Part shown: positions 1 through 255 of the stretch, in pieces
Numbering within the stretch: the first letter of the stretch is position 1
Layout: each line of letters starts with the position of its first letter
Origin: Escherichia coli
Lineage (GTDB): Bacteria; Pseudomonadota; Gammaproteobacteria; Enterobacterales; Enterobacteriaceae
Assembly: GCF_003334385.1 (NCBI RefSeq)
Contig: NZ_QOWN01000219.1
Direction: 5' to 3' (one strand)
DNA: 255 nucleotides
Translations under genes and position numbers: made by a program
Notes under the pieces: generated by a model
Databases searched by the model: none
Told to the model about the DNA's origin: nothing
The model's input: only the letters and a program-made list of their open reading frames with translations

Positions 1-149
1 GCCGGATAATGTTCCAGGAATTGCCAGTGAAATTTTGCGCGGGCGCGACGTTCATCACCGGCTTCAATGGCAGTGGCTACAGCGACTGCACCTTCTTCCT
101 TTATTGCCTGTTCGTCCGGAATGGCGGCGCAAATAAAGACTTTACTCAT
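1..149 (-). CDS. 5' portion (49 codons, incomplete at window edge) of a protein-coding gene; product not recognised (hypothetical protein). N-terminus: MSKVFICAAIPDEQAIKEEGAVAVATAIEAGDERRARAKFHWQFLEHYP...
   Basis: Manual translation of the reverse complement: ATG at complement(147-149), open frame through position 3 with no stop (positions 2-1 begin the next codon). A GAGGT Shine-Dalgarno lies 8 nt upstream of the ATG. An in-frame TAA (complement of 156-158) three codons upstream rules out a longer N-terminal extension. Codon choice is mostly common enterobacterial-type codons (GCC, CCG, GAA, CAG, CGT, CGC), with one rare ATA. GC is about 52% in the ORF versus about 38% upstream. No transmembrane-length hydrophobic segment or lipobox, so probably cytoplasmic. 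Identity was not established; no search was possible. Confidence 0.75.
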   Translation of the reverse strand, partial: MSKVFICAAIPDEQAIKEEGAVAVATAIEAGDERRARAKFHWQFLEHYP

Positions 150-157
150 TTTGTTTT

Positions 158-162
158 ACCTC
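158..162 (-). promoter_or_regulatory. Shine-Dalgarno / ribosome-binding site (GAGGT) for the minus-strand CDS
   Basis: The + strand reads ACCTC at 158-162, which is GAGGT on the minus strand. It is followed by an 8-nt A-rich spacer (AAAACAAA) and then the ATG at complement(147-149). This is a canonical match to the anti-SD core with canonical spacing. Confidence 0.7.
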
Positions 163-190
163 ATTACAGATTTAAGGGTGAACAAATCCC

Positions 191-204
191 TGCCATTGCT
201 GGCA
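191..204. repeat. Perfect 5-bp inverted repeat TGCCA-N4-TGGCA (spacer TTGC on + strand); candidate operator or short hairpin, function unknown
   Basis: Read directly from the sequence: 191-195 TGCCA and 200-204 TGGCA are exact reverse complements. The repeat does not extend (190 C against 205 T). Its centre lies about 48 bp upstream of the minus-strand start codon. The confidence is for the repeat existing as a sequence feature, not for any function. Confidence 0.5.
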
Positions 205-255
205 TATAAGAATGAAACCGGATATTTATTACGGAACTGTTTTAAAGACCTGCCG

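Follow-up and report, generated by a model that had tools for sequence, protein, structure and literature searches.

A 14-base dyad ahead of a prophage exonuclease gene of Escherichia coli as the probable stem of a portable intercistronic RNA element

Is the perfect dyad that lies ahead of an exonuclease gene in E. coli prophage DNA a binding site on the DNA or a hairpin in the RNA? The dyad (TGCCA, four nucleotides, TGGCA) occupies positions 191-204 of a stretch of 255 nucleotides, which as a whole is called the window here. A sequence-only reading of that stretch had placed the dyad in a presumed promoter or leader region, proposed it as the operator of a dimeric transcription factor, and added as a secondary remark that the mRNA might instead form a 5-bp stem with a GNRA loop. 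The features of the window, in the direction of transcription, are as follows.

242 to 255, minus strand: 3' end of ydfD (DUF1482 / lysis protein YdfD), with the stop codon TAA at 242-244, from the annotation of NC_017631.1
206 to 241, minus strand: AU-rich, variable upstream half of the gap, part of the ydfD module; unrelated sequence replaces it in other prophages
205, minus strand: invariant A at which the element sharply begins, 1 nt ahead of the stem; it is A in every context, and position -1 varies
191 to 204, minus strand: the dyad, read as the RNA hairpin UGCCA-GCAA-UGGCA (5' arm 200-204, GNRA loop 196-199, 3' arm 191-195)
171 to 190, minus strand: conserved tail, read as single-stranded, GGGAUUUGUUCACCCUUAAA (class consensus GGGAUUYRYUCAMCCUKAAA), kept before at least 8 different genes
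158 to 162, minus strand: Shine-Dalgarno sequence (SD) GAGGU of the exonuclease gene, read from the sequence, 8 nt upstream of the ATG
1 to 149, minus strand: 5' end of the exonuclease gene, ATG at 147-149, beginning MSKVFICAAIPDEQ (phrog_2082/255, exonuclease)

The dyad and the operon around it

The window is a 100% match to a Qin-like lambdoid prophage in 3,987 of 5,426 complete E. coli genomes (including NC_017631.1), and is thus a very common feature without annotation. On the minus strand the gene order is that of a Qin-type early-left operon: dicB, ydfD, a gap of 92 nt, the gene for an 823-aa exonuclease, xis and int. The exonuclease carries a C-terminal DEDD-type 3'-5' exonuclease domain beyond the window, and its homologue in K-12 is ydfE, a pseudogene truncated by IS2. 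According to RegulonDB, as cited in PMC11430063, dicBp transcribes dicB-ydfD-ydfE-insD7-intQ. The co-directional gene order together with this operon places the dyad, which lies about 2.2 kb inside the leftward operon, in an intercistronic leader and not in a promoter region. A promoter scan found no sigma-70-like promoter in the window, and inspection by eye found no GG-N10-GC spacing of the sigma-54 type there. Of the location proposed from the sequence, the leader was therefore retained, as an intercistronic one running from the ydfD stop codon (242-244) to the start at 149, and the promoter was given up.

The repeat itself is as it had been described. The window reads TGCCATTGCTGGCA at 191-204, two perfect arms of 5 nt around a 4-nt spacer, and the minus strand reads UGCCA-GCAA-UGGCA, whose loop GCAA is a GNRA tetraloop. 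Because the sole plausible start is the CAT at 147-149 (ATG on the minus strand), the centre of the dyad falls about 48 nt upstream of the start codon, as had been stated, and 41 nt separate dyad and ATG. The caution that such a dyad is only modestly improbable by chance was justified, since shuffles of the 92-nt gap give it in 10-42% of cases: a perfect 5-bp repeat with a loop of exactly 4 occurs in 10.5% of dinucleotide shuffles of the intergenic region and in 25% of those of the whole window, and loops of 3-8 nt raise these values to 42% and 75%. Folded over 126 nt or 255 nt, the minus strand was no better than shuffles (z = +1.15 and +0.06, respectively). The stem in the window has 5 bp, 3 of them G-C pairs, with a hairpin-only centroid structure of -6.8 kcal/mol, and the hairpin was predicted in all 23 contexts folded, with pairing probabilities of 0.87-0.98. 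As the dyad is unremarkable within the window alone, its significance comes solely from comparative data. A 9-nt perfect long-range inverted repeat (65-73 with 190-198) also links the hairpin region to exonuclease codons 26-28 and dominates the minimum-free-energy (MFE) fold of the whole window; this pairing was set aside as coincidental, since the second N-terminal class of the exonuclease lacks it and several members of the first have lost it.

The genes around the gap showed some features of their own. The exonuclease is a mosaic, in which the N-terminal part of about 430 aa exists in two forms with few invariant positions (L001 5678-8149, minus strand). The two alleles share 56% identity overall, and their C-terminal half, which hardly varies, has a CxxC...CxxC motif (CTACGQTGGGNCPDCG) in addition to the DEDD-type 3'-5' exonuclease domain; one RefSeq record names an exoribonuclease domain in this protein. 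An alternative 'type B' allele of ydfD ends in a 6-bp inverted repeat, GGCTGG-N8-CCAGCC, that spans the stop codon (L002 ~2745-2775 and L003 ~2587-2616, minus strand), and its spacer differs among copies (ATAACCCG, ATAACCCT, ATAATCCA, ATAACCAG and others). In phage Tritos, the region between DicF and dicB gave a sub-threshold Rfam match to the sRNA STnc100 (L166 29482-29622, minus strand; 33.5 bits against a gathering score of 47, E = 1.4e-4).

A hairpin and tail in many contexts

Comparison of prophages identifies the dyad as the 5' part of an element of about 35 nt, A-UGCCA-GCAA-UGGCA-GGGAUUYRYUCAMCCUKAAA, that is sharply bounded at both ends. Aligned diverged copies lose their homology between phages precisely at 205, the dyad's outer edge, or at the start codon of the exonuclease, the break at 205 being seen with the PPompW/Stx2a phages and H50. 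An early-left operon that carries this form of the element (family 1) has one copy of it, invariably in sense orientation and with 4-22 nt to the SD or ATG; the element is joined to at least 8 unrelated upstream sequences and at least 8 different downstream genes. In a set of 160 protein-anchored IMG/VR loci, at least 6 unrelated upstream sequences are followed by the same 18-mer, ATGCCAGCAATGGCAGGG, and this hairpin 18-mer is invariant even where the adjoining downstream leader has diverged (L117-L122). In an exact-motif scan the hairpin preceded ATTYRYTCAMCCTKAA, after which came the SD and ATG of at least 8 different genes. The downstream genes include those for two N-terminal classes of the exonuclease, racC, two phrog_2016 proteins and phrog_2434.

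The Rac-type copy lies, by annotation, between ydaE and racC and was found in 1,866 genomes, K-12 derivatives among these. In Citrobacter braakii the element stands between a ydaE-like gene and a small gene, which is followed by recE; in C. koseri the homologous genes abut, with no element between them. Only 27 phage records contain family 1, all of them of the Rac/Qin type. No second copy of the dyad hairpin was found in 16 kb of the prophage or in a complete phage genome. A protein scan of genome contigs returned only 9 loci, so the depth across species is small. A Rac-type element with 97.8% identity to the E. coli copies is also present at 5361-5405 of PP818812.1, 'Actinobacillus phage vB_Apl-pPE4' (H86), which suggests E. 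coli prophage sequence or a mis-assigned host. Likewise, an E. coli-type prophage segment with 39-83% protein identity was seen in the metagenome-assembled contigs L288 (SFGN01000167.1), L290 and L292, whose bins are labelled 'Lachnospiraceae' or 'Proteobacteria'; the assignment to Lachnospiraceae is probably a binning artefact. The flanks of some copies could contribute to the structure. Copies of the L168 type (ending in ACGGATTAAAAATGCCAGCAATGGCAGGGATTC), which have the 'type B' upstream context, carry a GGATT direct repeat on both sides of the hairpin, and in ydaE-type contexts the 5' flank AAUUU can pair with GGGAUU instead and lengthen the stem, so that basal pairing of the stem depends on context.

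In the family-1 hairpin the third stem pair is C-G in 117 copies, U.G in 40, U-A in 4 and U.U in 1, with 1-2 C.A singletons. The 117 TGCCA/TGGCA and 40 TGTCA/TGGCA copies come from the protein-anchored sets, in which the asymmetric TGTCA/TGGCA thus makes up 40 of 160 and is the second commonest form, found in a large and successful clade. The U-A and U.U copies come from a later scan, in which position 3 was left free and stem position 12 had to be other than G; the scan gave 4 copies of TGTCA/TGACA (the compensated U-A pair), 1 U.U and 0 C.A, so that 4 of the 5 were compensated, and the compensated copies may represent a single lineage. The path from C-G through U.G to U-A is the classical one for a selected RNA pair. 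In the loop, most changes affect the N of GNRA, with GCAA replaced by GAAA in independent contexts and one copy with ACAA. The family-1 alignment alone showed no statistical covariation, because four of the five stem pairs never vary. Its changes are non-synonymous in 6 of 7 cases and its four-fold degenerate sites are invariant, which places the constraint at the level of the nucleotides and not of a peptide. An upstream ORF (MPAMAGI...) that opens at the element's own ATG was accordingly rejected as the source of conservation: it has no SD, it runs for 9-16 codons or is fused in frame to the downstream gene, and in the sister families its ATG is absent or in other frames.

These sister families emerged as weak recurrent matches to a covariance model of the element, with the tail in common and different stems. 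Across lambdoid prophages and P4-like satellites, about 10 further and unrelated stem-loops are followed by the same tail. The rightward early operon holds family 2 (AAUCCUU-AACCGG-AGGGAUU), also in the window's own prophage and in Rac-SA53, and family 3 (CCGC-UCAC-GCGG) lies further down the leftward operon. A tail-only scan that left out the three known stems returned many further families with stems of 5 to about 14 bp and -6 to -22 kcal/mol, the conservation of the tail across families being partly imposed because the scan pattern fixed most tail positions. The sister stems end 0-6 nt from GGGAUU, and SD and ATG follow. They were found with a stand-alone DEDD exonuclease, with a dNMP phosphatase and in P4-like satellites, and in the satellites the element comes after an Ogr/Delta-like regulator and before small genes, a primase-like ORF, AlpA and integrase. 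One phage often carries an element in each of its two divergent early operons, with two different hairpins, the one in the rightward operon lying about 4.6 kb from the divergent promoters.

Compared with shuffles, folding is more stable in the recurrent families, which comprise about 11 distinct stems (mean z = -1.47, Fisher p = 8e-7; the clusters in this test are not all independent), whereas singleton pattern matches show no such gain (z = -0.32). When sense and antisense folds were compared, the sense strand was the more stable in 12 of 17 and G.U pairs numbered 18 versus 3 (Wilcoxon p = 0.05, borderline), a G-rich tail in itself favouring G.U pairs on the sense strand. Rfam 15 gave no match at the element at E <= 1 (Tritos 26-32 kb and six sister loci), and in the searchable literature the hairpin and tail sequences matched only unrelated primers or cDNA.

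Two of the sister families have features worth recording in their own right. The commonest one (37 copies in the sample) belongs to a P4-like satellite or island (L379 4987-11460) with the order HTH repressor, 80-aa ORF, Ogr/Delta-like zinc-finger regulator, element, 133-aa and 117-aa ORFs, 612-aa primase-like ORF, AlpA-like excisionase and integrase; its high G+C content suggests a host other than E. coli. In the rightward copies of family 2, AGGAGG follows the element, and a second hairpin with a GNRA loop, CCGCCC-GAAA-GGGCGG, lies between this SD and the ATG (L001 15676-15790, plus strand; L176 ~4900-4982 and L297 ~6750-6818, minus strand). This arrangement looks like a 'split SD', in which the hairpin would bring SD and start codon together.

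What the element may do

Taking this evidence together, we infer, at a probability of roughly 0.55, that the dyad is the stem of a GNRA-capped RNA hairpin which, with the tail at 171-190, would form a portable cis-acting intercistronic leader of about 35 nt. The element would head the exonuclease or recombination module of Qin and Rac early-left operons, belong to a wider class made of any stem-loop, tail and ribosome-binding site, which occurs in early operons of enterobacterial temperate phages and in P4-like satellites, and act on the polycistronic mRNA or the nascent transcript and not as a DNA operator. The comparison shows a discrete unit of hairpin and tail, portable and oriented, in intercistronic gaps; on the transcribed strand its stem appears to be under selection as a structure, and it is the secondary remark of the sequence-only reading, an mRNA stem of 5 bp with a GNRA loop, that the comparative evidence favours.

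As to mechanism, punctuation of mRNA processing and stability is the likeliest in our view, and we put it forward only tentatively. RNase E prefers single-stranded RN↓WUU or RAUUW, and the invariant GGGAUU at the foot of the stem would be a candidate single-stranded site of this type. A cut at this point would give the upstream toxin mRNA (dicB-ydfD or kilR-ydaE) a protective hairpin at its end and would free the mRNA of the downstream module with its own 5' end and ribosome-binding site, and the stability and translation of the two modules' mRNAs would thereby be uncoupled. GGGAUU is invariant and is unpaired in most family-1 folds. In family 2 it is predicted to be paired, within the 3' arm, which is a misfit with a single-stranded RNase E site, and the RNase E reading leaves the remainder of the tail, UCAMCCUKAAA, unaccounted for.

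Because identity over about 35 nt is shared at module edges, the element also serves in practice as a joint for homologous recombination, and such a role at mosaic junctions is compatible with an RNA function. That hairpin and tail together might constitute an undescribed class of punctuation, read by a host factor and doubling as a joint for module exchange, is a possibility to which we give well under even odds. If true, the class would delimit expression units in the long early operons of lambdoid prophages and P4-like satellites of enterobacteria, and would provide a molecular function for the 'linker' or 'boundary sequences' of Botstein and Clark.

E. coli K-12 carries two copies of the element, one in Qin (ydfD-ydfE) and one in Rac (ydaE-racC, upstream of recET). 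It separates toxic division-inhibitor and lysis genes (dicB/ydfD, kilR) from a recombination or exonuclease module, and if it sets relative mRNA stability or translation, it would control the amounts of each module upon derepression of a cryptic prophage. A class with many stems and one tail would be a new cis-regulatory RNA motif candidate for curation of the Rfam type, and it would be a concrete example of the long-proposed conserved junction sequences behind phage mosaicism.

Of the other explanations, the one that survives best, and that we still consider unlikely, is that the element is a mosaic boundary (linker) sequence kept for module-swapping recombination, with no direct role in expression and an incidental hairpin. 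This concept exists for lambdoid early operons (Clark 2001; Susskind & Botstein 1978, both as cited in PMC3029335), and it fits the breaks in homology exactly at the element's edges and the many different modules joined on either side. The length of about 35 nt is roughly the minimum homology for Red/RecET, given as 35 bp for recombination of that type (PMC9504249), and recombination genes adjoin the element. What recombination would not explain is that about 11 unrelated stems hold the same place relative to the tail, that the third pair follows the path from G.U to U-A and the strands are asymmetric, and that the sense orientation and the position before the ribosome-binding site are constant. 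Moreover, a covariance-model search found no copy in HK620, where boundary sequences were defined.

An elongation signal, that is, a leaky intrinsic terminator or attenuator, or a his-type pause before the next ribosome-binding site, is slightly more doubtful. A consensus scan did flag a terminator-like site (UGCCAGCAAUGGCA plus GGGAUUUGUU), and the stem sequences vary as they do in terminators, with some families reaching -17 to -22 kcal/mol. In the his pause, 11 nt separate hairpin and 3' end, positions -10/-11 are G and position -1 is Y; the geometry here, a 5-bp stem, 11 nt (GGGAUUYRYUC) and an invariant A, resembles it. But the pause consensus needs a G at +1, where the element has its invariant A. 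The terminator form meets further difficulties: the U-tract is not conserved (GGGAUUCGCUCAACC in the racC type, GGGGUUCGUAC in others), the tract always starts with GGG, and the operon contains 11 terminator-like matches against 8.1 +/- 2.7 in shuffles. Downstream genes (racC and others) are, furthermore, co-induced with the upstream ones, ydaE and racC being induced together when RacR is antagonised (PMC11014345).

Translational control, in which the CCU of the tail would act as an anti-Shine-Dalgarno sequence masking the downstream ribosome-binding site and the hairpin would set the folding register, seems improbable to us. CCU(N) pairs with the (N)AGG of the SD in most MFE structures, with a pairing probability between SD and tail of 0.4-0.9 in about one third of the contexts, and for 4 of the 6 context types the variable K corresponds to the base that precedes AGG. 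Every SD is, however, complementary to CCU by construction, and across the 23 contexts the accessibility of the ribosome-binding site does not differ from that of shuffled-element controls (percentiles 0.05-0.98). A test on the SD core was mixed, miscalled SDs being included in it, and in some families (L298, L314) almost no spacer or SD follows the tail.

The principal proposal made from the sequence, the operator of a dimeric regulator that binds DNA, has lost nearly all its ground; such a site might, for example, act as a roadblock inside the operon. The dyad is a perfect 14-bp one, its half-sites are of typical size and it is strongly conserved; even the double variant TGTCA/TGACA is a perfect DNA palindrome, which a symmetric DNA site would tolerate. 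Conservation of the half-sites, which the sequence-only reading had named as a check, was thus found, but its manner is that of a structure and not of protein recognition. One half-site is altered in the large TGTCA/TGGCA clade, conservation runs on for 20 nt on one side only, and the element is strictly oriented with transcription. The single-copy dyad also lies deep within the operon, where no promoter was found. The sister elements keep the tail and exchange the entire dyad for wholly different stems, the opposite of what a sequence-specific operator predicts. The 14-base dyad is therefore probably not a repressor binding site, and we regard an operator here as very improbable. Consensus sequences of IHF, CRP and Fis were also considered at the element by eye and dropped.

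Least credible of all is a chance dyad in a leader whose conservation merely reflects recent copying. In its favour, 10-42% of random 92-nt regions would contain such a dyad, overall identity exceeds 90% for most copies, and the alignment holds no covariation. Against it, divergence of the flanking leader (L117-L122) leaves the hairpin unchanged, the hairpin is retained between unrelated flanks and in other genera, and unrelated stems hold its position in the sister families. Three candidates of another kind were rejected as well. Mimicry of, or complementarity to, 16S rRNA at its 3' end or elsewhere gave matches that differ by family and are no better than those of shuffles; a second helix (GGG/CCC or GGAUUU/AAAUCU) or a loop-tail pseudoknot is, by eye, not conserved between contexts; and a CsrA site is contradicted by the loss of GGA in the GAG clade and its absence from the exonuclease SD, also judged by eye.

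Comparison with known systems

The portable hairpin and tail share traits with several known systems. Like boxB of the lambda nut sites, family 1 has a 5-bp stem with a GNRA-type loop (GCAA or GAAA) on a nascent early transcript. Unlike in nut, the order of the parts is reversed, the site lies 2-5 kb from the promoters, and the loops of the sister families are not of the GNRA type (UCAC, UUAAC, AACCGG and others). The nut boxA (CGCUCUUUA) is absent 5' of the hairpin, where the upstream sequences are variable and unrelated between contexts, and the 3' CGCUC of some tails was rejected as a boxA, since its position (YRY) is not conserved. No arginine-rich protein of the N type was found either; YdfA, YdfB, YdfC and their neighbours are without an arginine-rich N-terminus. 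The nut reading is not supported.

The his-type pause is a multipartite signal of about 25 nt, and the element recalls it by its 5-bp hairpin, the 11-nt spacer and an invariant position at the end of it, as well as by the sense orientation just ahead of a translation start. It differs in having A instead of G at +1 and in a conservation of sequence far above what a pause requires. With intrinsic terminators it shares a variable stem-loop followed by a fixed kind of 3' tract; unlike in terminators, this tract begins with GGG and is not U-rich, the 5-bp stem of the window is weak, and the downstream genes are co-expressed.

Intercistronic stabiliser hairpins and RNase E processing sites are known from pap, the REP sequence of malEFG, T4 gene 32 and phage f1. 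As in these, an intergenic stem-loop of arbitrary sequence stands here beside what would be a single-stranded sequence of the G/A-AUU type, and differences in mRNA stability between segments of the operon would be expected. The known sites are without a long conserved tail that is common to unrelated operons and mobile elements.

Finally, mosaic 'boundary sequences' have been described for lambdoid early operons (Clark et al. 2001, J Mol Biol 311:657, as cited in PMC3029335). These too are short conserved sequences, placed exactly where non-homologous modules meet in early operons, and several phages have them. Compared by description, the present class is unlike them in combining a variable stem-loop with a fixed tail of 20 nt and a ribosome-binding site, in its strict sense orientation and in its signs of selection for RNA pairing. 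Clark's 2001 boundary sequences aside, neither Rfam 15 nor the searchable literature contains the element or its class, and it would be a fresh variant within a known type, namely the intercistronic RNA hairpin element or mosaic boundary sequence.
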